Positions 440 through 23,514 of a DNA stretch of 32,000 bases are shown here, piece by piece (the first letter of the stretch is position 1; each line of letters starts with the position of its first letter). This stretch comes from Candidatus Heimdallarchaeota archaeon (GTDB lineage Archaea; Asgardarchaeota; Heimdallarchaeia; JABLTI01). Location of the stretch: assembly GCA_030614005.1 (NCBI GenBank), contig JAUWKS010000012.1, forward strand, positions 34,276 through 66,275, written 5' to 3'. The translations under genes were made by a program, and so were the position numbers. The notes under the pieces are model-generated. The model did no database searches, was not told the DNA's origin, and saw nothing but the letters and a program-made list of their open reading frames with translations.

Positions 440-1046
440 CCTTCTTTTCTCTTTTCCACCTCGTTCTGTCCTTCTTTTTATTTTTATTGTGTGGTATCTG
501 TTACCATTAAAAATTGGATTAATAGAACAAAATTATTTTTACTCATTTTAAAACCTAGAGTTCGAAAAATCTCTTTAGCTTAACAGGATCAGCTCTATCT
601 TCATCATCAATCAGTATAAACACACCGACATTTCTTTTGATGTATTCCTTGCTCCAGTCCTCTTTTATCTTCCATCCTCCTGTTGCAAACACTCCGTTAT
701 CCATATCGTAGAAAGGAACATGGGTGTGGCTGAGGATAATTTTATCTGTCTGAAGAATCTTTGGAAGAAAGTCTATGCTGTTAGTTATTAACTGTTTCTT
801 CATGTTAGTTGCCGCTTGATTCCAAGTTTCATTCACTCGTTTCTTAAGACCAATGTTATGTCCATGGCAGATGATAAACCGACCTTCTAGAGTATTTAGT
901 TTCACATAGGGAACTACTTGGATGTCCGGTCTATCGAATAGCAAGTTTCCTTCGTGTCCCATCCCACCTGTTACAAAGACTAACTTTTCCTTAAATCCCT
1001 TCTCAATACTCCAGTCAACAAAAGAGTCTAATGCCTCCTTTCCTGT
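440..1046. repeat. ~600 bp left end of segment 1, repeated in diverged form at 16830-17443
   Basis: Non-coding 441-554 vs 16831-16944 has 14 mismatches in 114 nt (hand count). The encoded phosphoesterase parts are about 80% identical in amino acids (hand count). Confidence 0.95.
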
Positions 1047-1190
1047 TTCATCGAAATTATCTAAGAAATCACCGTTCATAATAATTATATCTACTTTCTT
1101 TGACGCGCTTTCTAGCGCTTCTTTGAATTCATCCTCTAAACATCCTTCTGCACCTAGATGTACATCACCAACCACTATTGCAAGAGTCAC
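555..1190 (-). CDS. Calcineurin-like metallophosphoesterase
   Basis: Motifs GDVH, NGDFLD, TGGMGHE (in place of GNHD/E), CHGH and SHTH. GTG start overlaps the helicase stop by 4 nt, with a GGAGG SD upstream. Confidence 0.9.
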   Translation of the reverse strand: MTLAIVVGDVHLGAEGCLEDEFKEALESASKKVDIIIMNGDFLDNFDETGKEALDSFVDWSIEKGFKEKLVFVTGGMGHEGNLLFDRPDIQVVPYVKLNTLEGRFIICHGHNIGLKKRVNETWNQAATNMKKQLITNSIDFLPKILQTDKIILSHTHVPFYDMDNGVFATGGWKIKEDWSKEYIKRNVGVFILIDDEDRADPVKLKRFFEL

Positions 1191-3502
1191 CCCGCTAGAT
1201 CCTCCTTTGTCTTTTGTACTAAAAATGAGTTGACTATTCCAATAGAATCTTCTGATACATTAGCAAATAAAGGTAAGATTGACTCTTGAGTTTGCTTATT
1301 TATTAGAGCTTCATTAACTAGTTTCCTCATTTGTTCTGCTACTTTTTGGAATTCTCTAAAAAGAAATGCCGCATTGCCTAACTCTCCACCTCTATCATAA
1401 ATAACTATTTTATTCTCGTGTACGTTCACCACTGTTCTAAAAGAGGGCTCTGAAATATGCAATGCTATTTCTGTACTCTTTAGAATAAGGTCTTTCAATA
1501 AACTTAGTGCTTCTCTTTTCTTTTTATTGCTTGACTTCTTAGCTGAAAAAGTCACCTCTACTAAGAAACCACTAGTTTTCTCTTGCGAGTGGAAAACCTG
1601 CTCGTCTTGATGATTATCATCTATTTTGTTACCTGTTTTCGTGTACCTCACAACTTCAGCAGTTTCTCTTTGAATGACCATTTTGCCAAATCGAATATTT
1701 AGTTCAGCAAATCTAAACACTCGTGCCTGTTTGTCAATTTGGATAGAAGGAGCCTTTAGTTTGTTTTGTTCAATTGATGATTTATTAATTTGAAGCTTTT
1801 CTACAACAATCTTCCTCTCTAGCGATTTTTCAACTCGGTAGATATCTCCCTGTCTTCCTAGGTAAAGGAGGTTACCCTCTAAAGCCGTTCGTAATATTCT
1901 TTGCTCCTCAATTTCACCAATTATCCGTTCAAAATTATTATCAAGACTTCTCTCAACTAGTAACCTTCTTTGCCCTGCAGATCGAATTTTGTGGTTTCGT
2001 ATGAACTGTAATAGCTCTTGTTCATCAGCTATAATTAATTCACGTCTATCAGCAGAAACTTTGTGATTTATAGTTCGAAGAATGCCGTCTGCTATTAGCA
2101 TAACGATTGCTGTCTGAGTTATTTGCTTGCTTTCCAATGTTTTGCTGAAAGCAAGAATTTCTTCAATTGTTGTTATCCCCATATATATTCTGAATAACAC
2201 AAAAGCTTTCATTCTTTGTAAGGACTGTGAGTTAAACAATATTTGTTCAGCAGTGTTCTCTTCAAGAATGGTCTTTATTATTCGATAATTTTCCAAATAA
2301 TACTTATCCAATACTCGTTCTGTGTCTAATATTAGTGTAAAATTCTTTTTCTGAGAAATATCTTGAAATCGCAATCTTCCCATTCTTTGTATTAGCCCAT
2401 TCTTACCTGTTATCGGCCAGCCTATATTGATAATATGTTGAATTTTTGGTATATCTATTCCTAACTCAAGCAATGATGTAGTGAATAGAAATCGAAGTGA
2501 TCCATCCATTATTCTCTTTATAATATCTGCTTTATCAGATTCTGTTAGTTGACTATTGATACACATAAATGGTGAGTTTTGTTTTACTATCTCTAATGGT
2601 AAATCTGTTTTTATCATCAATTGTTCATTAAATTTCGCCACTAACTGACTGACTTTTTGCACACTATCAATGAATACTAAACATATTCCCCCTATCCTTT
2701 GAAGATGTGGGTCGATTCGCTCAAGTATGAATTGTTCTAGTGAATCCTTAGGAAGGATCATCACTCGAATCACTCCCCTTTTGCCTACAGCTTTTACAAT
2801 CTTTGCGCTTGGCAAGAAATTATCTCGAAATGAAGCAACATCCTTTACTGTAGCTGAAGCAAGAATTACTCTTAACTTTGGATTCGTTTGTTTAAAGGCT
2901 GCAATAAACTCTCGAACATGAGTTAAATATCCTCCCGAACCTGCATGTATTTCGTCAAATACCATTATATCAGTTTGTTTAATCCAGTCGAGAAAACCAT
3001 ATTTATCTTCCTTGAAACGTCTGTAGAACAATTTATCTAAAGTTGCCAAGATGATCTGTGGTTTCTTCTTCTCAATTTGTTCCAAGTCTTGTTTTGATAG
3101 GTCGCCATTGTATCTGCTATAGGTGATCTTTTTCCCTGTTGCTTCGAGAATATGATTGCAATAGCGAGTTAATCTTTGTTCCTGGTCAGCAGCAAGCTGC
3201 TTGGTTGGATAGATAATGATTGCATTAGAAATCTTCTCATCTATTAATTCTTTAAGTATTGTAAATAGAAACACTTCTGTTTTTCCAGCACCAGTCCCTA
3301 CTGTGAGAAAAAGGTCATCACCAGCAAGAATTTTCTTCATAGCTTCAATCTGGTATTTGTAAAGAGTGTAGGGAAACGCTTGTTTCAATGCTTTACCAAG
3401 CTTCACCATACCTACTTCAGGATCATCAATATAATGATTAGTTTTCTCACTCTCTTGTGGTTGGATATTAAAGGTTGCTTTAACGATGCAGTGGTTTGGC
3501 AA
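1187..3502 (-). CDS. DEAH-box SF2 helicase, YprA/MrfA (DUF1998-like) family
   Basis: Q motif YKYQ, I GTGAGKT, Ia YPTKQLAADQ, Ib ATLDKL, II DEIH, III SAT, V TTSLLELGIDI, VI QRMGR. ALEGNLLYLGRQGDIYRV and IYDRGGELG resemble the MrfA/DUF1998 C-terminus, but the terminal Cys cluster is absent. Confidence 0.85.
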   Translation of the reverse strand: MPNHCIVKATFNIQPQESEKTNHYIDDPEVGMVKLGKALKQAFPYTLYKYQIEAMKKILAGDDLFLTVGTGAGKTEVFLFTILKELIDEKISNAIIIYPTKQLAADQEQRLTRYCNHILEATGKKITYSRYNGDLSKQDLEQIEKKKPQIILATLDKLFYRRFKEDKYGFLDWIKQTDIMVFDEIHAGSGGYLTHVREFIAAFKQTNPKLRVILASATVKDVASFRDNFLPSAKIVKAVGKRGVIRVMILPKDSLEQFILERIDPHLQRIGGICLVFIDSVQKVSQLVAKFNEQLMIKTDLPLEIVKQNSPFMCINSQLTESDKADIIKRIMDGSLRFLFTTSLLELGIDIPKIQHIINIGWPITGKNGLIQRMGRLRFQDISQKKNFTLILDTERVLDKYYLENYRIIKTILEENTAEQILFNSQSLQRMKAFVLFRIYMGITTIEEILAFSKTLESKQITQTAIVMLIADGILRTINHKVSADRRELIIADEQELLQFIRNHKIRSAGQRRLLVERSLDNNFERIIGEIEEQRILRTALEGNLLYLGRQGDIYRVEKSLERKIVVEKLQINKSSIEQNKLKAPSIQIDKQARVFRFAELNIRFGKMVIQRETAEVVRYTKTGNKIDDNHQDEQVFHSQEKTSGFLVEVTFSAKKSSNKKKREALSLLKDLILKSTEIALHISEPSFRTVVNVHENKIVIYDRGGELGNAAFLFREFQKVAEQMRKLVNEALINKQTQESILPLFANVSEDSIGIVNSFLVQKTKEDLAG

Positions 3503-3504
3503 GT

Positions 3505-4023
3505 CTAATTCTCTCCTTGGATTTTAGCAGCGTATAAAATTGAAAATATTGAACTAAATTCATCCTTTAAAAAATCATTTATTTCTTCATCGGTTGTATA
3601 TTCTTCTCCTTTCGAATAAAATTGGATTATTCCAGAAATGCATTTTGTTATCGCTTCTTTTCTTCCCTCTCGAGATAAGAATCTGATATTTGATGAAAAA
3701 TTTTGAATTATTATTTCTTCTTCACGTTCTTTTAGAGCGATTTCTTTATTCAATTTTGTTCTATTATATAATTCAGCATGTGCTTGTGGACTAATTTGTA
3801 AATGTGGAGGTAATGCTTGCCCTAATGCGAGACTGTTATAGAGTTGAACCAAATTATCTAATTGGGAACCTTCTTTCAATCCAAAACGATATTTGTACTT
3901 TTGTCCAATACGCCATATTAGACCTTTTTTCTTCAACTCCTGAAGAGTTAGATACGTTTCTGTAAGAGCTATACCTGCTCCATCAGCTATTACTTTGGCT
4001 TTTTTTTGGATAGGCAATTCCAT
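3505..4023 (-). CDS. Hypothetical protein, possible N-terminal winged helix
   Basis: 172-aa ORF tightly coupled in the operon. ETYLTLQELKKKGLIWRIGQKYKY resembles a wHTH recognition helix and wing. Confidence 0.65.
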   Translation of the reverse strand: MELPIQKKAKVIADGAGIALTETYLTLQELKKKGLIWRIGQKYKYRFGLKEGSQLDNLVQLYNSLALGQALPPHLQISPQAHAELYNRTKLNKEIALKEREEEIIIQNFSSNIRFLSREGRKEAITKCISGIIQFYSKGEEYTTDEEINDFLKDEFSSIFSILYAAKIQGEN

Positions 4024-4059
4024 ATTTTATGAAATCACCTAACAAATACCATATCACTT

Positions 4060-5556
4060 TTATCGTATCCATTCTATTTCAAGCTCCTCAAATCGATTGC
4101 AATATTCAATTACTCTAGGAGAAAATTTATTCGGTTGCAGGTTATTTTCTTCCAGAAAATCCTTCTCTCGGTCTTCAAAAAGGAGAGACGAAGATTTAGA
4201 ACAAGTAAGGTTTTGTTCTACTTTCTTAGCAATTCGCTTATTTGGGTAATACACTAACGGTTTAAAATTCGCTTTTTTGATCTCCTCTTGACAGATCCTA
4301 AAGGCTATGTCCTTCATTTGTTCCCTTTCTTCTATGTCTAATGAAATCCATTGAGCAGATAATCGCCAGAATTTCACAGGTATCTCTCTTTCACAATCTA
4401 TTATCTTTACCATTAATTGCTTTTCAAGAAATTTCTGATGAATAGCTGAGAGTAAATTATCAAATTCAACAATAAATTGCTTACAAGCTTCTCTGAAGGT
4501 TCGATAGGTTTTTCCATTGAAGTAACATGGTTCACTAAATAATTGTTGTTTGAGCTTGTAAAGCATCTCTTCTCCTCTTTTGTTAACAACATAGACAATC
4601 TCCCCTTTAAATACATCAAGTTTATCAACTAATGAATTAGTTATTCTTTTGTCAAGAATAGCATGTACTAGCTTTATGTGTCCTGCGAACTTTAACGCTT
4701 CACACAAATCAAGCACCAGTCCCATCCATGATAGATCAGAGTAATAACTGAAATGACTAAATCCCCCAACACCTAGATACTTTAAATCTAATTCATCAAG
4801 TATATTCCACAATTCCTCCTCACAGAGAATGAACATATAATTAAACAGAACATCTCCTTTTGTACATGCCATTGTTTTGTAATTGCCTGTTGTTCTTTTA
4901 TGTAGATATAATCGATTGGACACTCGATTGCTGATAGCAAAATCAAAAGTGCTTATTAGTTCATTAGTTACCATCCAAGTAATATCTGCTGCTGATGCTT
5001 CTGAAAGATTACAGAGAACACTTGTATTACAATTATATCCATAAAGATAGGCATCACATATTGCATCAACAAAAAGCTGCCACTTTTGTTTTTCTGAAGA
5101 GAACCCTCGCAATGTTTGAACCAAGGCTAATCGATTAGATAGATTCGACCGCCAAAAGACATTGTTTAATCCAAAAGAAAATCGCATTACATCTACCGTA
5201 AGAGCTCTTTGACAGTCCATTCGCTCAACTTTAAACCATCCTTGAGGAGAAGAAATGCGAACATAATGGCACCCTGCAGAAACTAATTGTTGTTTTATCT
5301 CCTCAGAAATTCCCTGATAGTCATATACGAATTGTATTACTGACAAATTATATTGAAGCTTGTCTACATGAAGATTATAATCTTTAATAATCACTTGTTG
5401 TCCAGGCAGTATTTGAAAACCTAAGCTCACTTTATTCTTTTTCCGGGCTTCATCAAGCGTTAATCCAGTAAGTTTATACACTTCTTCATTGAAGATATGT
5501 TGATTATCCTTAACACATAATATATACTGTTGATCATCCTTTCTACTTTTACTCAA
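4060..5556 (-). CDS. cas1: Divergent stand-alone Cas1 / casposase-like integrase with a ~130-aa C-terminal extension
   Basis: Cas1 motifs in the correct order: N-terminal beta domain VIQFVYDYQGISEEIKQQLVSAGCHYVRISSPQGWF; E186ASAADITW (EG/AxAAxxYW/F); R-x3-R then GDVLFNYMFILCEEE (DPxNAxLNYxY); GGFSH268 (GFLH); LVLD283LCE286ALK (LALDLMEEFR); then VYVVNKRGEEMLY...FREACKQF. TTG start with a GAGGAGG SD. Confidence 0.8.
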   Translation of the reverse strand: MSKSRKDDQQYILCVKDNQHIFNEEVYKLTGLTLDEARKKNKVSLGFQILPGQQVIIKDYNLHVDKLQYNLSVIQFVYDYQGISEEIKQQLVSAGCHYVRISSPQGWFKVERMDCQRALTVDVMRFSFGLNNVFWRSNLSNRLALVQTLRGFSSEKQKWQLFVDAICDAYLYGYNCNTSVLCNLSEASAADITWMVTNELISTFDFAISNRVSNRLYLHKRTTGNYKTMACTKGDVLFNYMFILCEEELWNILDELDLKYLGVGGFSHFSYYSDLSWMGLVLDLCEALKFAGHIKLVHAILDKRITNSLVDKLDVFKGEIVYVVNKRGEEMLYKLKQQLFSEPCYFNGKTYRTFREACKQFIVEFDNLLSAIHQKFLEKQLMVKIIDCEREIPVKFWRLSAQWISLDIEEREQMKDIAFRICQEEIKKANFKPLVYYPNKRIAKKVEQNLTCSKSSSLLFEDREKDFLEENNLQPNKFSPRVIEYCNRFEELEIEWIR

Positions 5557-5557
5557 T

Positions 5558-7600
5558 TCAATTCCTCCTCATTTTCTTTCTCTTTTGAATCAATTTGAAT
5601 GTAGTATTACACATTGAACAGCTAACAGGTTTCAATCCCTGAGCTGGTCTATCATCTGTGCCAAAATCTTCAATTACAATTTCTCTCCCCTCCACTAAAC
5701 AAGTAGAACATAAATAAGCATATATCTCTTTTTTATCTGCTGAATATCCCACAAAACTTCTGGTAATTGCATCATAGAATTCTTCAACAGTATAAATTAT
5801 AGTTACCTTTTCTTTTCTTATAAAATGCTTGCAACCAACAGTTGTACTTCTGAGTGTTTTGGTAGCTCGAATATGGTTCTCACTTGAAACTTTTCGTTCA
5901 GCTATATTTATTGCTCTTCGCCAGAACATACAACGTCTTTTTTCAAACCAATGACAATCCCCACAAACGACTTTGAAATGTGCCGGGAAATCTTTACTTG
6001 TATAATAATCAAGACTTCTCCCCAAGGGTGGTTTGGCTGTTAGCGTCTTCACAGGATACCCACTTTTAGATAGACTTTGGATTGCTTGCTTTGCTTCAAA
6101 AGGATTAATGGTAAGCATTGAGCAAATTTTGTTTTGAGTAATAGGAGACTCAGTATTTGCCAGCAGTTCTTTTAGTGCTCGTTCAATTGTTTGTCTATCC
6201 ATTTTCTTATTTATTGGTGATTCCTCAACATCATAGGATTTTTGCAAAACTCTATTCAAGAGCTTTAGACTTTCTCTTGAATCTTGAGTCATCTGATCTC
6301 TAAAGCAATTTAACATCTGGGTAATTTGGAAAAGTACATAACTATTATTAGAAGCTGCTAGAATACTAGCAATGGTTTCCTCTTCATCTTTGAGAATATC
6401 TAACCTACCGATTAAAAATTGCAAATCATCAAATTGTAATTTCCCTCGTGTAAAATCGCTAAATATTTCCTGTACTAGTTCCCATGTAATGATGTCATTC
6501 TCAGTTTTTTTTCGGATAGTTCTCAAAAACATCATAGGATCGTTTAGCATCTCTTCAAAGTAGGTTGAAGCAATAATGTATTGTCTTCCAAATGTAGTCA
6601 AAGTGAAACGACTATAACTACTTTGATCTTTCTTTACTAAAGCAAATGCTCCTAGATGTCTTTCTTGCAAACTCTCAAATAGGGATATATTTTGGAAGTA
6701 TTTCGTATGGAAAATTAATTCAGTAAGGTGCTGTCTCATTTCATCATCTGTTTTCTTTTTCTTTGCTTGATATATTCGAAAGTACGTTGCTTTCTGTAAT
6801 CGTTCAATGAGTTGTTTTTTCGAAGGGGATCCTGAATATAAACAAAACAGAATAATACTCAAGAAAGCATCTTGTAATGCGTCCTCGTTTAATTCTTGAT
6901 ATATAGCTCTCACAGCCTCATTTGTTGAGATCATTATGTTATTAAATCCTCTTTCAATTTCTTCGGCAGGAATCAATCCGGTAGAAATAAAATGCTTTCG
7001 TACATGTGTTCTCTCTCGTTGAGGTAGAAGCAAAAGGATTGGGTCAATGTTATCAGAAATCCAAGACTTGCGAGCTCTATTAAGCGACTTATTCTCATCA
7101 AATGGATCAATGAAAATATACGCATTGACGATTGGCAGCTGGACTTTTGCTTTCAAAGCATCGTCTCGACTCTTTCGATATAACAGATTTCGAGTCAACG
7201 TGTTATAACTTGTTATGATTAGCTTATTCGCTGCTAGAGGGTGACTGTTTCCTTTAAATTTTGAAAACGTAGAAGCAATCTTCATCCCTGCAAGAGTTTT
7301 TTTGGAGGTCTCTGCAGTAACTTGATCCTCATCGTAATTAGCATAATTATAGATTTTCTTGGCTTGTTCAGAGGTTCGAACAATAATCATTGCTGTTTGG
7401 TCGGATAATCTAGCTGAAAGTAAAGCTATAGTGGTAGCTAATTGTAACTGGTCTTCAGGGAGAATTTCATAAAAAAATATGTCTGTTTCACATAGAACCG
7501 TTTTTCGAATAATGCTTAAGTTATCAACACAAGTAAATGGATAATCTCGAAAGATAGTGGTTATGCTAATGGGTAATTGTGTTCTATAAGTTGTTATCAT
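5558..7600 (-). CDS. Inactivated Hel308/Ski2-like protein with winged helices and C-terminal Cys clusters
   Basis: Degenerate RecA1 domain: no Walker A, Ia-like AMIIVRTSEQAKKIY, Ib-like IITSYNTL, II-like IFIDPFDE. Hel308-type WH (LIERLQKATYF...LTTFGRQ), a second wHTH, then CGDC-C-C and CSTC-CSMC. Confidence 0.6.
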   Translation of the reverse strand: MITTYRTQLPISITTIFRDYPFTCVDNLSIIRKTVLCETDIFFYEILPEDQLQLATTIALLSARLSDQTAMIIVRTSEQAKKIYNYANYDEDQVTAETSKKTLAGMKIASTFSKFKGNSHPLAANKLIITSYNTLTRNLLYRKSRDDALKAKVQLPIVNAYIFIDPFDENKSLNRARKSWISDNIDPILLLLPQRERTHVRKHFISTGLIPAEEIERGFNNIMISTNEAVRAIYQELNEDALQDAFLSIILFCLYSGSPSKKQLIERLQKATYFRIYQAKKKKTDDEMRQHLTELIFHTKYFQNISLFESLQERHLGAFALVKKDQSSYSRFTLTTFGRQYIIASTYFEEMLNDPMMFLRTIRKKTENDIITWELVQEIFSDFTRGKLQFDDLQFLIGRLDILKDEEETIASILAASNNSYVLFQITQMLNCFRDQMTQDSRESLKLLNRVLQKSYDVEESPINKKMDRQTIERALKELLANTESPITQNKICSMLTINPFEAKQAIQSLSKSGYPVKTLTAKPPLGRSLDYYTSKDFPAHFKVVCGDCHWFEKRRCMFWRRAINIAERKVSSENHIRATKTLRSTTVGCKHFIRKEKVTIIYTVEEFYDAITRSFVGYSADKKEIYAYLCSTCLVEGREIVIEDFGTDDRPAQGLKPVSCSMCNTTFKLIQKRKKMRRN

Positions 7601-7606
7601 CCTACT

Positions 7607-8245
7607 TCACTCCTGGTTTAGCAATAGCTCTTCTAGGTGTTCGGGCAGAGAAAGCAACTCCTCGCCAACAAACCGATCGATGTACTCCGCCATTTCTATC
7701 TCGAGTGATTCAGGAGAGCTCTCATCAATAATCGAAACTGGGAACTTGTCCAGAAATTCCTCACTCAATTCTTTCACTGTTTCTTGTTTGTTTGTCACTC
7801 TTTCAATAATAGTTTCTAAGTGCTTCTTGCTAGTTTTAAGTTGCAGTAAAAATGAATCATCAGGTTCTTCTGCGAGTTGACTTTGGATTTGCATTTTTAT
7901 ATTGAATTCTGGTTGACTGATTATCAAAATAAATTGGAGAAGGTTATTATTTATCTCAAAAAGCAATGGTTGAGTGTCTGATCGTGGTAGTTTTTCAATT
8001 ATCAACCATTCAGTTAGTTTCTTGACTTTCTGTTTGAATGTCATCAAGCTCATTTTCTCTAGCACTTGATTGTACAATGACAGTACGGATGGGTACGTCA
8101 CTTGACCGAATTTTATTAAATTATTTACTAGCAACTCACAGATAACTAGCAAATTAGCAGTGATTTTAATGTCTGGATTATCCAATTCCACTGAATTCGC
8201 TGGAACTGATTGTTGAAAAGCACTAGTGTGAGTCATTTCCGTCAA
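7607..8245 (-). CDS. Hypothetical protein, possible winged-helix DNA-binding domain with acidic C-terminus; first gene of the operon
   Basis: 212-aa ORF. VTYPSVLSLYNQVLEKMSLMTFKQKVKKLTEWLIIEK is wHTH-like. Its stop overlaps the SD (GGAGTGA) of the next gene. Confidence 0.7.
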   Translation of the reverse strand: MTEMTHTSAFQQSVPANSVELDNPDIKITANLLVICELLVNNLIKFGQVTYPSVLSLYNQVLEKMSLMTFKQKVKKLTEWLIIEKLPRSDTQPLLFEINNNLLQFILIISQPEFNIKMQIQSQLAEEPDDSFLLQLKTSKKHLETIIERVTNKQETVKELSEEFLDKFPVSIIDESSPESLEIEMAEYIDRFVGEELLSLPEHLEELLLNQE

Positions 8246-8462
8246 TAATTTAAAGGAAAATTATGTTTTTAAAGTACTAAAAGTATAAAAAAACGAAAAG
8301 GTTCGAAAGAAGAGTTCGAAAAGAAGGCAGGATAAGGCTTCTTTTAACTCTACGGAAGATTACTTTATGTCCCTTTAGAATTATATGTAATCCCATTTTT
8401 TCCTTTTTTTCTGTATTTTTGCCCTTTCTTTGAGAAATTTTCTCTTTGATTTCTCTAAATTT

Positions 8463-8567
8463 CTCGTGTCGGAACGACGACCGTTAAAAAAGACCACCGA
8501 AGTGTGGGCTTTTAGGTCGCACGAGGGGAGCGTTCAGCGACAGTTTTTTGGTCAAGGACATTCCCTC
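8463..8567. other. GC-rich multi-stem structured non-coding element
   Basis: 45 of 80 nt are G/C over 8463-8542 in an AT-rich background. Nested inverted repeats: TGTCG/CGACA, GAACG/CGTTC, CGACC/GGTCG, AAAAGACCAC/GTGGGCTTTT. Alternative pairings: CTCGTG/CACGAG and GAGGGGA/TTCCCTC. Confidence 0.6.
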
Positions 8568-8634
8568 TTACTTCTGAGCTGTGAATTTTTCTCAAAATTT
8601 TTTTGCTTCTTAAAATTGCAGAGTTATTCTTAAA

Positions 8635-10281
8635 TTACTCTTTTTCCGTACATAATACAAAAAATGTTTTTACATACTGGTGTAGGACAGAATTTTGAAT
8701 AGTGTTTGTTTTTACTATTTCTATTCCAAACCGATTTTTCAAATCTGTATAAAGTCTCTTACTATTATTTAGAACAATTAGATAATCCTTGCAGTATGCC
8801 AAAGATTTCAATAAGACAAGTAAGTTATCATTAGGTTTTAGATTTAATCTAGCTATAGTTTTCCTCGAACGGAAATGATAATGATCATTTTGTTCAAGAA
8901 AAAGCATTAACTGATGAGGTACGTTAGAGAATAAAGGTAGAAGCTTGAGAAGATGAGTGATAGGAAGATTTCCAGTGTATTCATAAGCAGCTAACCGACC
9001 TTTTTTTATTTCCAAAAAATCTGCTAAATCTTGCTGAGTCCAATGGTTATTTTTACGAACTTTTCGCAAATAATTAGTGCAATCCGGAATTAGAAGCATA
9101 GGGAGAAGTTCAAAATTAAAGAAAGTAGTATCATTTATGGTAATAAGAGCTTCAGGATTAATGTCTTTAACATACAAACGTTCGAATAATTTTGTTTTCC
9201 TGCTCTTTAGATATTGTAATAAATACTCTATCTTAGTTATATGCCTTGATTTAAGATAATTACCTATTATATCTTTAGAGATTGCCATAATTTGAAGAAC
9301 ATAACTTTCACCATAAATTGATTTGTGATGATAAATGGAATACTTAATTTTATATTGATCCAATACTTTTCCAAAAGCTTGTACAAATTGTCTTGATGCA
9401 GATGAAAAACTAATACCTCTAATATAAGAACCATCAGCATCCAATACTCCACTCCAGAATTCCCAGCGAAGAGTCTCATCCGACGTAAAAATAAGAGGTT
9501 CTTTCAAGGAATCATATTTTTTCCCAGTAATAGGTTGGTCTGTAAGGAAATTGGTTAACCTAACAATCCATTTGTTATTCAAATGCAACAACCAAATCTT
9601 CTTTTCACCTGATATTTTGCCTTGAATACCAAATAATTGATTTGCTAATTTTTGCATCATAAGCATGTGGTCTTGTGAGAAATCCACCAATTCTATATTA
9701 TGGTAGTTCAAGTGACCATCACCAATGACTACTCCCAAAAAATAAGCTAAATCTTTTGAGAGTCTTGTAGGCATATGGAAGTGTTCTCCCCGAGCAGATT
9801 GGAAAGGAACATATTCTTGTGTGAGGAATTCTTGCCAAAAGTCACTTAACCGGAAAAGAGGGAAAGGCAGTCGCTGCTGGTTTTCAGTATAGTCGATGAT
9901 CTTTTGTTGCCACTTCTTGATAGAATAAGCAATAGCTGTATCTTGAAAATAATAACTGCATCGCTCAGCTAAAGCAAGTGATTGTTTTCTAATCTGTTGG
10001 GAAATCTCACAAGGTAATGTAACATAAGGCAATCGCTGTAATAATCGTTCTCCTGACTTAAAATCGATTTTACGAATCAAAATGGAGTAAAGATTTAGGA
10101 TATTAGGTTCAAGGAATATTTTTGATTGCTTATTCAGCTCAATTAGTTTATTCGCTGTTAGCCACTGGTTTTTAGGTGTGGGCAAGTTATCAATAAGCAA
10201 AAAGTCTGTTTGCCAAGATTTAGGGATTTCATCAAACATCTTATTGAGTACTTTGTAATTGGGAATATAAAACTCCCCCAA
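8635..10281 (-). CDS. Stand-alone LAGLIDADG endonuclease-family protein with an XRE-type HTH
   Basis: Two motifs, LAYFLGVVIGDGHL and FWSGVLDADGS. HTH LRKVRKNNHWTQQDLADFLEIKKGRLAAYE. No intein splicing motifs seen. Confidence 0.85.
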   Translation of the reverse strand: MGEFYIPNYKVLNKMFDEIPKSWQTDFLLIDNLPTPKNQWLTANKLIELNKQSKIFLEPNILNLYSILIRKIDFKSGERLLQRLPYVTLPCEISQQIRKQSLALAERCSYYFQDTAIAYSIKKWQQKIIDYTENQQRLPFPLFRLSDFWQEFLTQEYVPFQSARGEHFHMPTRLSKDLAYFLGVVIGDGHLNYHNIELVDFSQDHMLMMQKLANQLFGIQGKISGEKKIWLLHLNNKWIVRLTNFLTDQPITGKKYDSLKEPLIFTSDETLRWEFWSGVLDADGSYIRGISFSSASRQFVQAFGKVLDQYKIKYSIYHHKSIYGESYVLQIMAISKDIIGNYLKSRHITKIEYLLQYLKSRKTKLFERLYVKDINPEALITINDTTFFNFELLPMLLIPDCTNYLRKVRKNNHWTQQDLADFLEIKKGRLAAYEYTGNLPITHLLKLLPLFSNVPHQLMLFLEQNDHYHFRSRKTIARLNLKPNDNLLVLLKSLAYCKDYLIVLNNSKRLYTDLKNRFGIEIVKTNTIQNSVLHQYVKTFFVLCTEKE

Positions 10282-10284
10282 AAA

Positions 10285-10734
10285 CTACTTGAAATACTTC
10301 TCTTTTTGAATTAACCATTCAACTTTGTAGGCTGCTAAATCATTTACAGAAAAAAATTCATATCCTGCTTTCCAAAGGATTAAACCAATTATTATAGCTG
10401 ATCGACCAAGAACATCAGTGATATCAATTAGTAATTCCTCTTTGGTTATATCATAATAATGTTGCAGGTAATATTCAGAGAGAAAGAGCATTTCAAGGGA
10501 ATTTTGAGATGAATCCAATTGATAAAGTGCTCCTGCAAGATAAATTCGAGCTAAATCGCTTTCAGTAGAAATTAACTCATGTTTAATTTGATTAAATGTA
10601 ACCTCATTAGTAAAGGTAGCAAGAGCCCAACAAGCTTTTGCTCTAACCACAACGTCGTCATTTTCAACCAGTAAAGCTATAGACTGCATGTCATTTGTAC
10701 TAAATAATTCAGTAAGCAGAGCTTCTCTATTCAT
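10285..10734 (-). CDS. HEAT-repeat protein
   Basis: VVVRAKACWALATF and LARIYLAGALYQL resemble HEAT_2/PBS-lyase repeats. Coupled to both neighbours (3 and 12 nt gaps). Confidence 0.65.
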   Translation of the reverse strand: MNREALLTELFSTNDMQSIALLVENDDVVVRAKACWALATFTNEVTFNQIKHELISTESDLARIYLAGALYQLDSSQNSLEMLFLSEYYLQHYYDITKEELLIDITDVLGRSAIIIGLILWKAGYEFFSVNDLAAYKVEWLIQKEKYFK

Positions 10735-10746
10735 AGTATGGAATCC

Positions 10747-12846
10747 TCATTCAATATGAATTTCAACATTATCTACCCAAGATGTTACACCAAATAAACT
10801 TTGTTGACTCTCAAGAAATGATTTATTGACTTTCACATAAAGAATAGCTTTGTCGGCATTAAGAAGGTTTTTTCGAAACTCAAGTAAATTTGCTGCTTCT
10901 TTTATTAGGTGTGGAAGATCTGGTTCGTAAGAGATATTACTCCGATCTTTACAGCTGACTAATATCATCTTGTCATTTTGGAAGGCAATATGATCAATTT
11001 CAAATGGCTTACTGATATTTGAAAGGAAAACATTTGAAGCTACTTGATAGTCTTCTGTTATTAGCCTATCTCGTATTTCTTGCTCATAAGTTGTTCCATC
11101 TCCTCTTCGATTTTTAATATCATGAACTTTTATTGATAATGGCAATTTTTCTTGTAGTTGTTTTTTATATTGAAGAAGAACTAGCAAGTTTGAATTCTGT
11201 GTTAATTGATACTTGAGTTCGAGTATTCCAAAATAATCCTTCTCAACTAGAAATGAATGAATCATTTGAAATACTGTACGTCTATTTGGTTCGATAACTT
11301 TTTCAGAAATTACACCTAAATCAACATTCGTTTGTTGAGATTCTCTGTTAACAACATCTTTTATGTAAGAATAGAGTAATTGGAAGTCAGTTACTGAAAT
11401 ATTCATCAATAGGCAGTATTCAGTAATATTGGGTGAGTTTAAAGAGGTGATTACTGACAAACATTCTAATGCTTCATTTTGCAATTCTGCCTTAGATACA
11501 ACTTCGCTTGTTATAGGATGAATTTGACTTGATTTATTTTCAGTTAGTAAAGCTTGTTTTTTTGAGTATTCTAACATAGAGTCAATTATTAAATCTAGTG
11601 AATCCCTTATGTTCATAGTAGCCGATAAACCAATGAGAAGAACCCCACAAGATAAACCATATTGTTTAGTTATTTGAAAATGAGTGTGTAAACGCAAAAT
11701 ATCTTGATTAATAAATAAGAATGGAAACACATACACAAATTTATTAATTTTTCTTGTTGTGTGTAATAAATCTGCTATTGCATATTCAAGCTCACTACTA
11801 AGTGTTTTATCTGATGTTTTTATCTCACACAGTAGTAGAAATTGTAAACGTTTGTTTACGGCTATTACATCAACAATTTTTCTATTACCATTGATATTTT
11901 CATCTGAATTATTGAAGTTTAATAATACTTCAGGTAGTAGTATCAAATCTCTTGTGGTTGCAAATTGTTTTATAATATTCCTAACCAACAACTCATATGA
12001 GAAATCGCAATGGTCACCCAATGCACTGGAATATGACTTGAGAGTTTTGAGAGAAAGGCCTCTGCACTCAAGAAGAGACATTAGTTGTAAATCTTTTTCT
12101 GCAATTTCTGTTAACTCAAAATCTGGAGATGAGAATAAAACCGTAATTGATTTTCTTTTCCCACAATAAGGAAAATAAAGACATTTCTCAGGCTTTCTTC
12201 CAGTGTGCTGTCTGATTATTCGAGTTTCAATAATCATTGTTTCTTCACCATCTTTAGAAGCAATTACTAATTCTGATTTTTTAAACCAATCTTTGATGTA
12301 ATGATTCAATTGGTATGACAAGGAAATAGATCCACCATCTGTTAATGTTCCAATTGCCTTAATAAAAAGTAAACCTTTATCTCTATAGATTGTGAATTTA
12401 CGATTTCCTTTACCGCCATTGATAATGGGTGTTAGTAAGCATACGTTCGGTAGTTGTACGGAATTTAATAGAGTTAGAGCTTTTTGATACTTCTTTGTTG
12501 GTATAAAGTATGAGTTATTTATCATATTAATCTGGCAAATAATTATTTCCCTATGTTGGAAATCTGATGAATTTGAAAGATGAATGTATATACCATTTTT
12601 AATTTTAGTAATTTTAATGAGAATGTTAAGGTAATGGGTTCCTGCTGAAACTGACTTGATTTGTATTTGCAATATGTTAGATCTATTTCCAATTTCAAAC
12701 CATTGAGTTATTTCCTTTGGTATGTTGATTATGCTATTTTTTAATATCCGTCCCTTTAATTCTATTATTCCATTAGAATATATACTAAAACCATTTTTCT
12801 TTGATGTCATATCTTTTTGAAAGACTAATTCCTTTTCCATTTTCAT
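10747..12846 (-). CDS. Multidomain protein with two PD-(D/E)XK nuclease-like domains and an AbrB-like beta-rich N-terminus (ORF could extend to 12945)
   Basis: KIVDVIAV...LLCEIKT and YEQEI...FEIDHIAF...LVSCKD. N-terminal GRILKNSIINIPKEITQWF is AbrB-like. ATG at 12846 is preferred over TTG at 12945. Confidence 0.6.
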   Translation of the reverse strand: MKMEKELVFQKDMTSKKNGFSIYSNGIIELKGRILKNSIINIPKEITQWFEIGNRSNILQIQIKSVSAGTHYLNILIKITKIKNGIYIHLSNSSDFQHREIIICQINMINNSYFIPTKKYQKALTLLNSVQLPNVCLLTPIINGGKGNRKFTIYRDKGLLFIKAIGTLTDGGSISLSYQLNHYIKDWFKKSELVIASKDGEETMIIETRIIRQHTGRKPEKCLYFPYCGKRKSITVLFSSPDFELTEIAEKDLQLMSLLECRGLSLKTLKSYSSALGDHCDFSYELLVRNIIKQFATTRDLILLPEVLLNFNNSDENINGNRKIVDVIAVNKRLQFLLLCEIKTSDKTLSSELEYAIADLLHTTRKINKFVYVFPFLFINQDILRLHTHFQITKQYGLSCGVLLIGLSATMNIRDSLDLIIDSMLEYSKKQALLTENKSSQIHPITSEVVSKAELQNEALECLSVITSLNSPNITEYCLLMNISVTDFQLLYSYIKDVVNRESQQTNVDLGVISEKVIEPNRRTVFQMIHSFLVEKDYFGILELKYQLTQNSNLLVLLQYKKQLQEKLPLSIKVHDIKNRRGDGTTYEQEIRDRLITEDYQVASNVFLSNISKPFEIDHIAFQNDKMILVSCKDRSNISYEPDLPHLIKEAANLLEFRKNLLNADKAILYVKVNKSFLESQQSLFGVTSWVDNVEIHIE

Positions 12847-12997
12847 AGTTTTTGAGATATTGTTTCCTAACACCAGAGTCATAATTATCAATATAATATA
12901 AGAGTAAGGAGTTATAAGTATTTTGTGGAAATCCAAACTTTCCAAAATATGCTTAAATTGCGAAAAATACTTAATCTATAAGGTAAAATAAGTAACT

Positions 12998-13165
12998 ATG
13001 AAATTCATAGGTAGCGCTAAACTCTACGGAAAAAATCAAATCACCGTCCCAAAAGAAGTAGTAGAAGAATTGAAGTTAAAACAAGGAACACAAATCATCT
13101 TCCTTCAAAACGATGAAGGTTACGTGTATATCGTAACTGAAGTTGCTTTACCATCTAAAGAATAA
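12998..13165 (+). CDS. AbrB/MazE/SpoVT-family DNA-binding protein (55 aa; not in the ORF track)
   Basis: Hand translation MKFIGSAKLYGKNQITVPKEVVEELKLKQGTQIIFLQNDEGYVYIVTEVALPSKE fits the AbrB pattern. Divergent from 12846 and followed by a T-tract. Confidence 0.85.
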   Translation: MKFIGSAKLYGKNQITVPKEVVEELKLKQGTQIIFLQNDEGYVYIVTEVALPSKE

Positions 13166-13621
13166 GAGAGCCCTATTGATTCTTTTTTTTTAGATTCTTA
13201 GGAACAGTTCGTGTGTCAAATCGTAAACAATTATCATCAACATACTCTCCGGAATTATCCCAATGTGTCATTTTTAACATACTTTTATCAGTACTTATAC
13301 ACTTATCTTCAGTTAATCCTTCTCGTAATATTTGGAAACTCAAGTAAGAAAAAGGATCATAAGGAGGGAAAGGTGATAATTTAACCTTTTACAAGATGAA
13401 AAAGTATTAATTTTCATTACAAGTGAAGTTGAAATATCGTATCCAAAGGGCTAATAGAGATGAAAAGTCAAGGATTATTTGACCAGTAAACAAAATTAGT
13501 AAAGACGACTGATTTAGAATTTGACAGATTGAAAAGTTCAACTAGTAAAGCAAACCAAAAATTGAAATATATACTAGAATAAAAAGATCTTATTCTAATG
13601 AGTATTAAGCAATGACTAGAC

Positions 13622-16540
13622 TTAAATTTTATAATTTATACAATCATCTGAATGAAACTCTTTTTTCTTGCAGAAAAATGGTAGTCCAGGTTTTATAAGG
13701 TTTTTATTTTCTTCTTCAAAATGCTTACATGCGTTATTCAATTTAAGAAGTAGTTCTAATGGATCAAAAATTTTTTCAGTATCTTTTAATCCATAAAAAT
13801 AGGCTTTTCTTACAGCGTTATCTAGTTCTTCATGTAATTTTTTTAGAATATTATCTCCGGGTAATTCTAAGGTTCTATATATTTCTCTTAATGACAAATG
13901 CTTTTCGTCTCTTAGTTTGTTCCGGGTTATTCTTAATTCTCTAGCTTTATTTGCTACATCAATACAGAGTTTAACTTTTTCATCCAAGTTATCTTGAATA
14001 TCAATATCATTTATAACACCAAATTGAGGCCAGGGAAAAGTATTATAGATTGTTGTTATTGTATATCTATAATCTCCTTTCAAAGTTGAACAACGTGCTT
14101 TTATCCATTCCCAATGAAATGAACTCTGTAAAATACCAAATGAATAATCATCACCTAAAGGAAATGCTATTAGTGCATCATTTGGTCGAATATTTGATGA
14201 AACAAAATCAAATATGGATCTTTTTGCAACCCGACTACAAGCAATGTATCTTGGAATATTCTTGATTAGGTTAATTAAATCCTTTCTAGTTCTCCAAAAT
14301 AACCACCATTTCTTTAAATGATTTTGACGAACGGTATCTTTTTTCTCTAGTTTTTCATATAGCTTCATTTCTTCATCAGCTTTTTGTTCAATTGTTGGGA
14401 GAACCTTTTGTTTTATTATTTTAAATGGGGTTTTAAATTTCTGTGCATCAAATAAAGACATCGATTGAAAATCTATCACTAATCGGTCTGGTCGAGATTT
14501 TATATTACCCAGCATTGCGTTTGCTATTAAGTAAGGAAAAATTACTTCTCTCGCTTTAGGTTCCTTTTTGAAAATATCTTTAGCTTGTTGTCGAGATAAA
14601 ATAAACCCACTGTGTCCATGAGTTTGACCTTGGTAACAAGTTCTTGAATTCTTATTTGTAATTAATGCTTTTGCTGAGATGACATCTAATTTTGGTGAAA
14701 GAGAAGAAGGTATCCATTTTAGATCATATTCCTCGAGCAAATTATTGGGGTTTTTCTCATCATAGAATAGTAATTTCTTATTCTTAGATTCATCAGTCTC
14801 TCCCTTAATCCAATTTACAATGGATACGTGAACTTGAGCTTCCCCACTCCAAGGCATAGTGGAAACAGCTTCTATAATAGTTCCATTATTTTCAATAATA
14901 TACTCCAACCCATCTTTTTTTGAATAAGTTTGTCTAATTGTATTTGTACCAACAAGTCCTGCTTTACCACCTTCCTTTAACTTGTTATGAGCTTTGCGAA
15001 ACCAATAAACACAGTAATCTACTCTACCATTTACATCTGGATATTGTTTTCTTAACTTCTCCACATATTCTGGTCCAAATTCTTCAATCATCTTATTTTT
15101 AGCCTGAAAAGGAGGATTACCAATGATTATATCTGCTTCGGGCCAGTCAATAAATAGGGCATCATCAATGATGAAATTTGTATTTAGATTATCAAAAGGT
15201 AATGGACTCTCTGCATCATAATTCAACAAACGCTGACTATTGAATTCATTAAAAGTATCTATTGCATCTTTCTTAGCGAATGATAATGTTATTTTAGCAA
15301 GTTCAATAGCAAAAGGATTAGTATCAATTCCGAAAAATTGTGTTGATTTAATTTTAGATTGTAAAGAATGTTTTTTCTTTTCAAGTGATGGATATTCAGT
15401 TATCATTTTTCGTATTAAATCAAGTTCAATATGTTTTAATTCCCTAAACGCTACAGAGAGAAAATTACCACTTCCACAAGCAGGATCTAGAATTCTCATT
15501 TCACTTAAAGAGTTCCAAATCCTCTCCAACTCTTTTAATGATTTTGCCTCAGTTATTTTTAATCTAATCGGTCGAAGAATAGTTGGTTCTACTATTTTCA
15601 TAATGTCTGATTCTCTTGTATAATGAGCACCATATTTGTGACGTTCATCTTTTCTTAGACTTGATTCAAATATATTGCCAAAAATAGCAGGTTGGATTTT
15701 AGACCAATCATGAAGAGCTACTGCGTGTAAATTTTCCAATTCACTCTTGCTTAATTCAATAGGTTGAATGATTTTAAAAATATCACCATCAAAATATGAA
15801 ACTTCTTTAAATCTACCTCCTGTTTCTTTTTTTGTTGAATTCATCTTAGTAAAAAGTAATTTAAAAAGATCGTAGCTATTAGCTCCATTTATACAATCTT
15901 GAATTAATTCTGTGAAAAAACCTCGAACTGGAAATAAACCAGTATCTTCAGCAAAAAAACAAACTAAACATTGGAGTGTAAACCTTTGAGCTTTTTCATA
16001 ATTAACACCTCTCTTTATTAAACTCAAATATAATTTTGCTATTTTTTGTGCTGCTACTTCTGTAACAGCAACTCTATCATTATTGAATATCGGTTTTATA
16101 TCTCTTCCATGGTAAAGAAATGATAAAGCTCTCCATCTTTTCGCTAAATTATCTATATGTATTATATCAACTGGATCGGGTTGTTTGTTCCAATCAAATA
16201 TCCAAAATTCATCAAAATTACACAAAATGACATAAGAAGGTCGCAATTTATAGATGTTTATCCAGTAGAATTTAGCTTGACTTATATGTTTGTTTAAATC
16301 TTCACCTCTTGATTTCATTTCTATCAATACTCTTTCAGGCCAAAATAAGTCTGCATAATAGGTTTTATTTTCGATTTTTATAGAGGCTTCAAAAGAAGCA
16401 CCACACTCAAAAACCCCTTCATGTCCAAATGCTTCGAATAAATGGTTCAAGAATGTTTGGGATTCCTGTTTTTCTCTACCAGATAATTTTTTTGCAAAAG
16501 ATAGAAATTCTTCAAGGTTGCTTTCAATTAGCTTTGTCAT
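13622..16540 (-). CDS. MmeI/YeeA-like (Type IIL/IIG) fused restriction endonuclease and N6-adenine methyltransferase
   Basis: N-terminal ADLFWPERVLIEMKS nuclease motif, GAHYT, motif I LDPACGSGNFL, motif IV IGNPPF, and an MmeI-like C-terminal TRD (YGILQS-type region FGILQSSFHWEW, YRYT, TFPWP). Confidence 0.9.
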   Translation of the reverse strand: MTKLIESNLEEFLSFAKKLSGREKQESQTFLNHLFEAFGHEGVFECGASFEASIKIENKTYYADLFWPERVLIEMKSRGEDLNKHISQAKFYWINIYKLRPSYVILCNFDEFWIFDWNKQPDPVDIIHIDNLAKRWRALSFLYHGRDIKPIFNNDRVAVTEVAAQKIAKLYLSLIKRGVNYEKAQRFTLQCLVCFFAEDTGLFPVRGFFTELIQDCINGANSYDLFKLLFTKMNSTKKETGGRFKEVSYFDGDIFKIIQPIELSKSELENLHAVALHDWSKIQPAIFGNIFESSLRKDERHKYGAHYTRESDIMKIVEPTILRPIRLKITEAKSLKELERIWNSLSEMRILDPACGSGNFLSVAFRELKHIELDLIRKMITEYPSLEKKKHSLQSKIKSTQFFGIDTNPFAIELAKITLSFAKKDAIDTFNEFNSQRLLNYDAESPLPFDNLNTNFIIDDALFIDWPEADIIIGNPPFQAKNKMIEEFGPEYVEKLRKQYPDVNGRVDYCVYWFRKAHNKLKEGGKAGLVGTNTIRQTYSKKDGLEYIIENNGTIIEAVSTMPWSGEAQVHVSIVNWIKGETDESKNKKLLFYDEKNPNNLLEEYDLKWIPSSLSPKLDVISAKALITNKNSRTCYQGQTHGHSGFILSRQQAKDIFKKEPKAREVIFPYLIANAMLGNIKSRPDRLVIDFQSMSLFDAQKFKTPFKIIKQKVLPTIEQKADEEMKLYEKLEKKDTVRQNHLKKWWLFWRTRKDLINLIKNIPRYIACSRVAKRSIFDFVSSNIRPNDALIAFPLGDDYSFGILQSSFHWEWIKARCSTLKGDYRYTITTIYNTFPWPQFGVINDIDIQDNLDEKVKLCIDVANKARELRITRNKLRDEKHLSLREIYRTLELPGDNILKKLHEELDNAVRKAYFYGLKDTEKIFDPLELLLKLNNACKHFEEENKNLIKPGLPFFCKKKEFHSDDCINYKI

Positions 16541-16793
16541 TAACTACTTCCTTCTCATTTAGATATAAATAATTGTTGTTTAGAAATTATTAAAATTTGC
16601 GATTGCACAACCGTGTTCTTAACGCTTCCCACATTCTTTTTAGATTATGTAATTAAAGTATTTCTAACTCTTTACTCTGAAACATGTGTTTTTATTTCTC
16701 TATTAGTGAAGGGGAGAAAAAATAAATGAATTTTTTAAGGTGATTTCTTCTTTCTATAAAAAGAACACTTCTATAAAAATATGCTGCTTTTAA

Positions 16794-16829
16794 AGGATGC
16801 CGTGGATTCAAATTCCACCCGGTCCACCA
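16794..16829 (+). repeat. tRNA-Ala 3'-end copy 1 (att/TSD-like)
   Basis: Matches 404-439 at 35/36 (G408 to T). Confidence 0.95.
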
Positions 16830-16944
16830 CTTTCTTTTCTCTTTTCAGACTCGTTCTGTCCTTCTTTTCATTTTTATTTTGTGCTATCTGTTACCATTAA
16901 AATTTAGACTAATAGGACAAAATCATTTTTGTTCATTTTAAAAC

Positions 16945-17443
16945 TTAGAGTTCGAAAAATCTCTTTAGCTTAACAGGATCAGCTCTATCTTCATCATCAA
17001 TTATAATGAATACACCAATATTTCTCTTTATATAGTCCTCATTCTCCATTAACTCTTCTTTTACCTTCCACCCTCCTGTTGCAAATATACCATTGTCCAT
17101 ATCATAGCTTGGGAAGTGTGTATGGCTGATAATTAGCTTGTCAGTTTTGCGGATTTTTGGCAAGAAATTACTATCATTTGTTATCAAGTGGTTCTTCAAG
17201 TTAACTAAAGCTTGGTTCCATGTTTCATTTACTTGCTTCTTCAGACCAATATTATGTCCATGACAGATGATAAACCGCCCTTCTAAAGTGTTTAATTTTA
17301 TATAAGGAACAATTTGGATATCTGGTCTATCGTACAGTAAATTTCCTTCATGTCCCATCCCTCCTGTTACAAAGACAATTTTTTCCTTAATACCTTTTTC
17401 AGCACTCCAAAGCAAAAATGAATCCAGTGCTTCTTTATCCAGT
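16945..17443 (-). pseudogene. 5'-truncated paralogue of the 555-1190 metallophosphoesterase
   Basis: Homology extends upstream to KEALDSF and, after a +1 insertion near 17437, to TG. The first ~48 codons, with GDVH and GDFLD, are missing. In-frame stop at 17458-17460. Confidence 0.9.
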
Positions 17444-17664
17444 ACAATTAGAAGAACTCAACAAATTTTTTTTCAAAACTTTATTGATTTCGTCTTGTGT
17501 TTTTAATGATAACATGTTTTATGATTGCTTATCCGACAAAATCTAAAAGGTTATTCAGTAAGTACAATCTAACATAGGTATCAAGAATTCTTAAATATAA
17601 TTACCTTGAAGTAGTACATGAACTCTTTTGATTAGGAAAAGAGCGGAGGGATTAAAATTTAAAA

Positions 17665-18579: not shown

Positions 18580-18586
18580 CAGAAAT

Positions 18587-18617
18587 AAAGGAATCTTTTG
18601 GGATTCCTTTTCTTTTA
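18587..18617 (+). terminator. Hairpin plus T-tract terminator
   Basis: AAAGGAATC(18587-95)/GATTCCTTT(18602-10) is a perfect 9-bp stem, followed by TCTTTT, 7 nt after the peptidase stop. Confidence 0.6.
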
Positions 18618-20347: not shown

Positions 20348-20370
20348 TTTCAGTTTTCCATTTCAAAAAA

Positions 20371-23144: not shown

Positions 23145-23165
23145 CTTCTAAAATCCTCACTTTTT

Positions 23166-23513: not shown

Positions 23514-23514
23514 A

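Follow-up and report, generated by a model that had tools for sequence, protein, structure and literature searches.

To the best of our knowledge, Cas1 is known in two settings, CRISPR adaptation and the casposons. Casposons duplicate 14–15 bp at their target sites (PMC5137440, PMC10359463), and the casposase of Aciduliprofundum boonei, which generates a 15-bp duplication, targets the T-loop and the 3' end of tRNA-Pro and needs the T-loop segment (PMC5137440). Here we analyze a 32,000-nt stretch (the window) of contig JAUWKS010000012.1 from a Candidatus Heimdallarchaeota archaeon, in which a gene at 4060–5556 on the (-) strand encodes a genuine, extremely divergent member of the Cas1 superfamily with both Cas1 domains. 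Its Asgard host lineage is the archaeal group closest to eukaryotes. Like the casposases (Cas1-solo proteins, in particular those of family 2, with the enzyme of A. boonei and that of Methanosarcina mazei in structure 6opm, its best or second-best structural match), the protein possesses a Cas1 fold with a predicted E-H-D site, exceeds CRISPR Cas1 in length and carries a C-terminal extension, and occurs with neither Cas2 nor CRISPR. The element that carries its gene also resembles a casposon in lying at a tRNA 3' end, with the T-arm within the target region (PMC5137440). Unlike in casposons, a family B DNA polymerase (PolB) and terminal inverted repeats were not found in the Heimdall elements, the duplicated block is 28–36 bp and lies inside the tRNA, whereas that of casposons is 14–15 bp and mostly downstream, the sequence is too divergent for the Cas1 hidden Markov models (HMMs), and the gene is obligatorily linked to those of a helicase-like zinc (Zn) protein, an Lhr/MrfA-like helicase and a metallophosphoesterase.

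With Cas1-Cas2 and with Cas1-Cas2/3 of type I-F CRISPR systems, the protein shares fold and catalytic residues, and the duplicated length at its element is near that of a CRISPR repeat. Type I-F also encodes its integrase alongside a superfamily 2 (SF2) helicase-nuclease. In contrast to CRISPR adaptation, this genome is without cas2, an array and effector genes, and in contrast to type I-F, the associated nuclease is a metallophosphoesterase instead of an HD domain and the helicase resembles Lhr/MrfA more closely than Cas3.

Cas1 fold and catalytic residues

An AlphaFold2 model of the 498-aa protein, built from an alignment of 19 sequences (predicted local distance difference test score (pLDDT) 69, predicted template modeling score (pTM) 0.70), has 46 matches at E ≤ 0.001 in a Foldseek search of the PDB, and all 46 are Cas1 proteins or casposases, led by the casposase-DNA complex 6opm (E 1.5e-7 over about 350 columns). 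The VIA structural search gives a Z score of 18.3 to the Archaeoglobus Cas1 4n06 (251 residues, root-mean-square deviation 3.6) and of 17.4 to 6opm, with unrelated chains from about Z 9. In structure searches of the ESM Atlas and of clusters in the AlphaFold DB, all matches are Cas1 clusters but for one 'uncharacterized protein' that is more closely related, and the nearest UniProt structural cluster carries no name. At the sequence level, HHalign aligns a profile of the family and its remote relatives to 24 canonical Asgard Cas1 proteins with 96.3% probability and an E value of 1.9e-9, placing residues 68–367 on Cas1 residues 30–314. The remote relatives had to be added to raise the probability to this level, as the profile of the 19 Heimdall homologues gives 41% (E 2.9e-4). 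The Foldseek, VIA and HHalign scores together exclude chance. In addition, a 1329-aa Asgard protein (L077:735-4724, (-) strand) passes the Pfam Cas1 model PF01867 at 40.3 bits and is matched by both the Heimdall-only HMM (2.8e-10) and the wide profile (2e-30), which provides a transitive sequence link to Cas1, and the remote relative P0033 reaches 21.8 bits against the Pfam Cas1 cut-off of 22.3.

An earlier, sequence-only reading had called this protein an unrecognized, divergent Cas1 with intact catalytic residues, and had proposed a structural superposition and a search with Cas1 HMMs as checks. The superposition gave the significant Cas1 and casposase matches above. The profile comparison was divided: while the family-wide HHalign profile finds Cas1, the curated profiles do not, and Pfam, NCBIfam and PADLOC are all silent at E ≤ 0.1, with the cut-offs of the Cas1 models (PF01867 etc.) not reached. 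A sequence search of the PDB returned nothing, and a profile search of the PDB returned weak unrelated matches (E 0.14 or worse), with Cas1 absent from them. The protein is therefore both Cas1-related and missed by annotation, as that reading had it, and the predicted catalytic residues are found at the codons or in the motifs that it gave: E186 (5001–4999, within NLSEASAADITW), H268 (4755–4753, motif GGFSH), and D283 (4710–4708) and E286 (4701–4699) in the motif LVLDLCEALK. In the HHalign columns these four residues fall on the Cas1 catalytic Glu (EG...), His, Asp and Glu (LDL.E). The same alignment bears out the 3-residue insertion between His and Asp and the longer loop after the R-x3-R motif, where about 14 additional residues precede the N-Y helix.

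The gene starts with TTG 1 nt past the stop of the upstream gene. Its product comprises an N-terminal beta-strand domain of the Cas1 fold (5242–5421, (-) strand; residues about 46–105), delimited by the model strands at 47–100, the Foldseek alignments and the HHalign alignment from residue 68, and an alpha-helical catalytic domain (4417–5229, (-) strand; residues about 110–380) that holds E186, H268, D283 and E286 and is covered by the VIA alignment over model residues 106–438. The C-terminal extension (4063–4416, (-) strand; residues about 381–498), also claimed previously, holds with a length that depends on the reference. Against a 329-aa Asgard Cas1 the match stops near residue 367–380, leaving about 115–130 extra residues, while the longer chains of archaeal Cas1 and casposases align structurally up to about 438–444, leaving about 55–60 residues beyond any Cas1. 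Folded alone, the extension has a pLDDT of 64 and a pTM of 0.45, and no Foldseek match at E ≤ 0.001 was found for it. It may be a counterpart of the DNA-binding HTH domain at the C-terminus of casposases.

The family is tiny, and its named members are only from Heimdallarchaeota. Nineteen relatives were found among 5.8 billion clustered proteins, 18 of which are about 500 aa in length, and the sole source name among them is 'Candidatus Heimdallarchaeota archaeon'. When 1.84 billion representatives were searched exhaustively with a profile, 24 proteins were found, and the remoter relatives are from metagenome contigs, one of them archaeal as judged by its neighbor genes. E186, H268 and D283 are invariant among the 19 close homologues, and 18 of them have E or D at residue 286. 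Across 40 sequences that include the remote relatives, E186 (D in two), R211, R215, N239, H268, D283 and [D/E]286 (N in one) are kept. The protein is thus predicted to keep the conserved E-H-D/E metal site, and the family-wide retention of the catalytic residues together with R211, R215 and N239 argues that it is apparently active as an enzyme. That it is instead inactive or no Cas1 at all, its fold being convergent or a Cas1 relic that serves as a scaffold or DNA binder, is in our view highly improbable. Such a reading could draw on the failure of every curated Cas1 HMM to reach E 0.1, on the 10–13% sequence identity to solved Cas1 structures in the Foldseek alignments and on the loop at 262–279 bearing H268, whose pLDDT is below 50 in the model, but it leaves unexplained why the E, H, D, D/E, R-x3-R and N motifs are kept in 40 members from lineages otherwise less than 25% identical, and it conflicts with the HHalign result and with the Pfam-positive intermediate that links the families.

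As had been noted from the sequence, cas2, cas4 and a CRISPR-like array of short spacers were not found in the window. The wider genome (3.6 Mb, 90% complete) has no PF01867 match above 9 bits and no Cas2 match above the cut-off, the lone match (17 bits) lying inside the helicase gene, and a crude genome-wide scan found no repeat-spacer array. CRISPR arrays can be missing from metagenome-assembled genomes (MAGs). Canonical Cas1 was found in 69 of 200 genomes of the phylum. Since the genome is without cas1, cas2 and an array, the Cas1-like protein would act outside CRISPR, and a mode of action without Cas2 fits this genome. Full-text literature searches found no description of the family or of a module of Cas1, helicase and phosphoesterase. 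The family would represent a third, deeply divergent Cas1 branch, which is invisible to current annotation profiles and linked both to a pair of helicase and nuclease and to a fused, helicase-like partner.

The tRNA-bounded island and its candidate integrase

Six closely spaced, translationally coupled (-) strand genes, of which the Cas1-like gene is the third, form an operon in an island bounded by tRNA sequence. The proximal boundary is formed by a tRNA-Ala(UGC) gene (329–439, (+) strand; 34-nt intron) at its 3' end, and the distal boundary of this 16.4-kb segment is a copy of that 3' end, from the T-stem to CCA, at 16795–16830 on the (+) strand. In four sister genomes the same tRNA-Ala gene stands directly beside an Arf-like GTPase gene that is 24 kb away here, and these are empty sites. 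The tRNA 3' end lies 20–115 nt from the phosphoesterase end of the operon in four loci: the window and L051, a 44%-identical variant, at tRNA-Ala, L004 at tRNA-Pro and L056 at tRNA-Lys. Two elements are delimited on both sides by tRNA 3' end copies, those at 440–16794 of the window and at 871–15066 of L004, where the second tRNA-Pro end copy is 14.2 kb away. The islands are thus 14–16 kb long, between copies of 28–36 bp.

The tRNA-Ala(UGC) gene at 329–439 is overlooked by ARAGORN with default settings and is found once introns are allowed, while the copy at the empty sites of the sister genomes is intron-less. The GTPase gene (24969–26252, (-) strand), which encodes a 427-aa Arf/Rag-like small GTPase, is the conserved chromosomal flank of the tRNA-Ala site across the genus.

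Neither a tyrosine nor a serine recombinase was found in the two delimited elements. In the whole genome PF00589 has one match, on contig C58, and none on the contig of the island. A DNA polymerase domain was likewise not found in open reading frames of at least 100 aa at 441–16794, nor in the L004 element. As the sole integrase-related protein in this tRNA-inserting mobile unit is a Cas1 relative, and casposases do likewise, we favor a casposase-like integrase, and propose that the Cas1-like protein may mobilize its own 14–16-kb island as the integrase of a new PolB-less element, a reading that we hold tentatively and rate as plausible rather than probable. Beyond homology and genomic linkage, all of this is what we infer. 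An oligomer of the Cas1-like protein would be placed by the winged helix-turn-helix (wHTH) and Zn partners on the T-arm and 3' end of the tRNA, the 3'-OH ends of the element would be joined to staggered target positions and gap repair would then duplicate the 28–36-bp 3' segment of the tRNA. The Lhr/MrfA-like helicase and the metallophosphoesterase may free, unwind or trim the element ends during excision or integration; in Tn7 or casposons, end processing is done by other nucleases. Such an integrative element would depend on Cas1 while lacking both a DNA polymerase of its own and obvious terminal inverted repeats. If true, it would be the founder of a new class among Cas1-driven mobile elements, one independent of Cas2 and of a polymerase of its own, which carries defense genes among tRNA sites. 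In that case it would further offer a new test case of the way in which Cas1 rulers fix the duplicated target length, the key step to the origin of CRISPR repeats.

Several points weigh against an island integrase of this kind. At L003, L053 and the remote L061, neither flanking tRNA genes nor repeats were found, and a search at L059 and L062 found none either. Terminal inverted repeats were not found at the ends of the window and L004 elements, where short or degenerate ones are possible. The block of identity at both borders, which extends from the 5' side of the T-stem in the T-arm to CCA, is also the attachment (att) pattern of tyrosine integrases, and the direct repeats of 28–36 bp are twice as long as the casposon duplication. 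Among low-depth Logan contigs from cold-seep metagenomes, none spans the island or shows a circular junction. As the MAG is 90% complete, a trans-acting integrase may be unassembled. Operons of helicase, nuclease and wHTH genes in restriction- and toxin-rich islands are typical of defense systems, and the loop that bears H268 is the poorly modeled one noted above.

The att-like block, the three loci without tRNA linkage and the incompleteness of the MAG speak at the same time for a different reading, in which the operon travels as cargo and serves defense or DNA repair. The Cas1-like protein would then be a structure-specific, metal-dependent DNase that acts with the helicase and metallophosphoesterase to degrade an invader or to process damaged or branched DNA, and an integrase unrelated to it, whether lost, left unassembled or acting in trans, would have moved the island. 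The 771-aa SF2 DEXH helicase of the operon (1187–3502, (-) strand), identified as Lhr-core/MrfA(YprA)/Cas3-like from its profile matches, finds its best PADLOC matches in BrxHI, SngC and Cas3, and its best NCBIfam match in the ligase-associated Lhr-type helicase, at 93 bits against a cut-off of 850. The natural partner of that helicase type is a metallophosphoesterase, and the last operon gene encodes a 211-aa calcineurin-like one (555–1190, (-) strand), its stop about 115 nt from the tRNA 3' end. With the clusters of Lhr-core and metallophosphoesterase and the bacterial MrfA(YprA)-MrfB pairs, the operon indeed shares a pair of helicase and metal-dependent nuclease, and remote orthologues of the 771-aa helicase carry the MrfA Zn-binding domain (MZB, PF09369). 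Unlike the operon, those systems have no Cas1-like protein and are not found at island tips, and the bit score here is far from their cut-off. Defense genes are also nearby, namely a type IIG restriction-modification gene, a NERD-like nuclease gene and PIN toxin genes, with AbiE in L061. Nevertheless, we consider the cargo reading, which is the main rival, somewhat unlikely. No integrase of a known type is present in the two fully delimited elements, and the operon is always at the tRNA-proximal tip and in one orientation, the usual place of island integrase genes. Every gene common to the elements belongs to the set described here, while the type IIG enzyme and tetratricopeptide repeat genes vary as cargo. 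PADLOC has no model for the Cas1-like, 680-aa or NERD-like 732-aa proteins and matches the 172-, 212- and 149-aa proteins only weakly (E 0.001–0.03). If the cargo reading is true, this would be the first Cas1 relative taken on as an effector.

The tRNA islands of tyrosine integrases invite the same comparison. They share with these elements the insertion at a tRNA 3' end, the T-stem-to-CCA identity block, the tandem accretion and the defense cargo, but the delimited elements are without a tyrosine or serine recombinase and have the Cas1-like operon at the int position.

A contig present in three cold-seep runs (X1–X3) matches the island starting exactly at position 441, the base that directly follows the tRNA end, and has upstream of it 131 unrelated bases that are found in neither this genome nor any fetched locus. 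With this foreign upstream sequence, the same element end may sit in another context. The island was also considered as an aloposon, an assignment that was rejected because the giant tandem genes and the ParA-like ATPase that define the aloposons of Heimdallarchaeum (PMC8813620) are both absent here.

Cassette segments behind tRNA genes

The last 30–36 bases of the tRNA-Ala gene are repeated beyond the distal boundary of the island, at 20370–20405, 23110–23145 and 24140–24175, where the copies bound three smaller segments. Four segments of 16.4, 3.5, 2.7 and 1.0 kb therefore stand behind one tRNA, with the operon in the first. The second segment starts with an 89%-identical copy of the phosphoesterase end of the element, including a truncated phosphoesterase gene, and is thus a decayed sibling element. 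Two more tRNA genes of this genome are followed by cassettes of 0.6–2.4 kb without an integrase, one a tRNA-Pro and the other a tRNA-Ile.

These arrays raise a third reading, that a trans-acting Cas1-like machine inserts its own element and also unrelated cassettes at tRNA 3' ends, each time duplicating 28–36 bp. The outcome would be arrays of cassettes between tRNA-end repeats, intermediate between an integron and a giant CRISPR array. Each of the four segments is bounded by a repeat, the repeat length is near that of CRISPR repeats and a similar array is present in genome G081, all of which is consistent with such capture. Arrays of partial tRNA repeats are, on the other hand, the usual fossil of successive, decaying tyrosine-integrase elements, the small segments may be deletion remnants, as the second demonstrably is, and nothing ties the cassettes to the Cas1-like protein. 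On balance capture in trans seems improbable to us. If it were true, Asgard genomes would build ordered arrays of defense cassettes, and the system would represent a living stage between the transposition of casposons and the acquisition of spacers by CRISPR.

The segments at 16840–24184 hold, in order, a truncated phosphoesterase paralogue with peptidase-like and beta-propeller genes, a UvrD-like helicase gene and a DUF5615/PIN-like gene, and the related array of G081 includes a UvrD-like segment. Of the other two tRNA sites, L075 (C8:36000-41000) has a tRNA-Pro(UGG) gene followed by a 2.4-kb cassette with an AAA_21 ATPase and RloB and a 0.6-kb cassette with an ArsR wHTH gene, and L076 (C46:27000-30000) has a tRNA-Ile(GAU) gene followed by a 1.3-kb GNAT cassette. 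A 27–33-bp copy of the tRNA 3' end bounds each of these cassettes, which contain no integrase.

The operon, its cargo and fused relatives

The order of the genes is identical in all 11 loci examined, although their proteins are only about 44% identical. The first operon gene encodes a 212-aa protein (7607–8245, (-) strand) that is kept in all loci and likely contains a wHTH and a coiled coil; its counterpart in L061 has a MarR-type wHTH. It is followed by the gene of the 680-aa partner (5558–7600, (-) strand), a Zn protein with a helicase-like N-terminal part, a wHTH and a Cys-rich C-terminus, for which the Atlas feature search gives a lead to SF2 helicase C/RecQ-Zn with a score of 0.82, below 0.9. 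Between the Cas1-like gene and the helicase gene lies the gene of a 172-aa ArsR-type wHTH protein (3505–4023, (-) strand), for which the same search gives leads below 0.9 only. Its complex prediction with the Cas1-like protein scores 0.00 in a run without controls.

The 172-aa protein is about 16 N-terminal residues shorter than its orthologues, which all have these residues and are encoded by genes that run into the end of the Cas1-like gene. In contigs of two metagenome runs, one base is missing at position 4000, within an A8/T8 tract (about 3993–4017). Together, the missing base and the missing N-terminus suggest a homopolymer frameshift in the assembly or the strain, and the gene is probably shortened by such a 1-nt error or variant near position 4000.

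Upstream of the operon, a gene of a 548-aa LAGLIDADG-like and HTH protein (8635–10281, (-) strand) is found in every locus, including the remote L061. The adjoining genes of a HEAT-like 149-aa protein and the NERD/PD-(D/E)XK-like 732-aa protein (10285–12945, (-) strand) are conserved in four elements. Between the LAGLIDADG gene and the operon lies a GC-rich structured element (8455–8560, (-) strand) of about 85–100 nt, which is near-invariant in its two outer helices and 25-nt 5' block across loci with 44% protein identity. Its consensus fold has a central hairpin with two compensatory pairs, and it occurs in a single copy in the genome. An Rfam scan of the window at the gathering threshold matched neither this element nor the intron-containing tRNA nor anything else, and no counterpart of the element was seen by eye in L061. 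As part of the system, the GC-rich element could serve either as an RNA or as a site on the DNA.

At the distal end of the island, a type IIG restriction-methyltransferase gene (13622–16540, (-) strand) is variable cargo. The enzyme is 92% identical in G081 (L051:1181-4096), where the Cas1-like core is only 44% identical, a contrast suggesting that elements sharing a tRNA site have exchanged modules.

In the remote relative P0023 (1215 aa), a homologue of the 680-aa partner is fused N-terminally to the Cas1-like domain (BLASTP of the 680-aa partner against residues 99–721 of P0023, 1e-22), while other relatives have a wHTH or a PD-(D/E)XK (Cas4-like) domain in its place. Downstream of the genes for P0023, P0024 and P0025 stand those of a DEAD helicase with the MZB domain and then a metallophosphoesterase. 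By the fusion and the shared downstream genes, the core surviving across lineages consists of the DNA-binding partner with the Cas1-like domain, the helicase and the phosphoesterase.

Three larger Asgard proteins of 1300–1600 aa, P0026, P0030 (L060:10001-14029) and the L077 protein at 735-4724 ((-) strand), have a divergent Cas1-like domain near the C-terminus. Their gene contexts are unlike the Cas1-like operon, and P0026 and P0030 contain a PD-(D/E)XK (Cas4-like) nuclease domain ahead of the Cas1-like domain.

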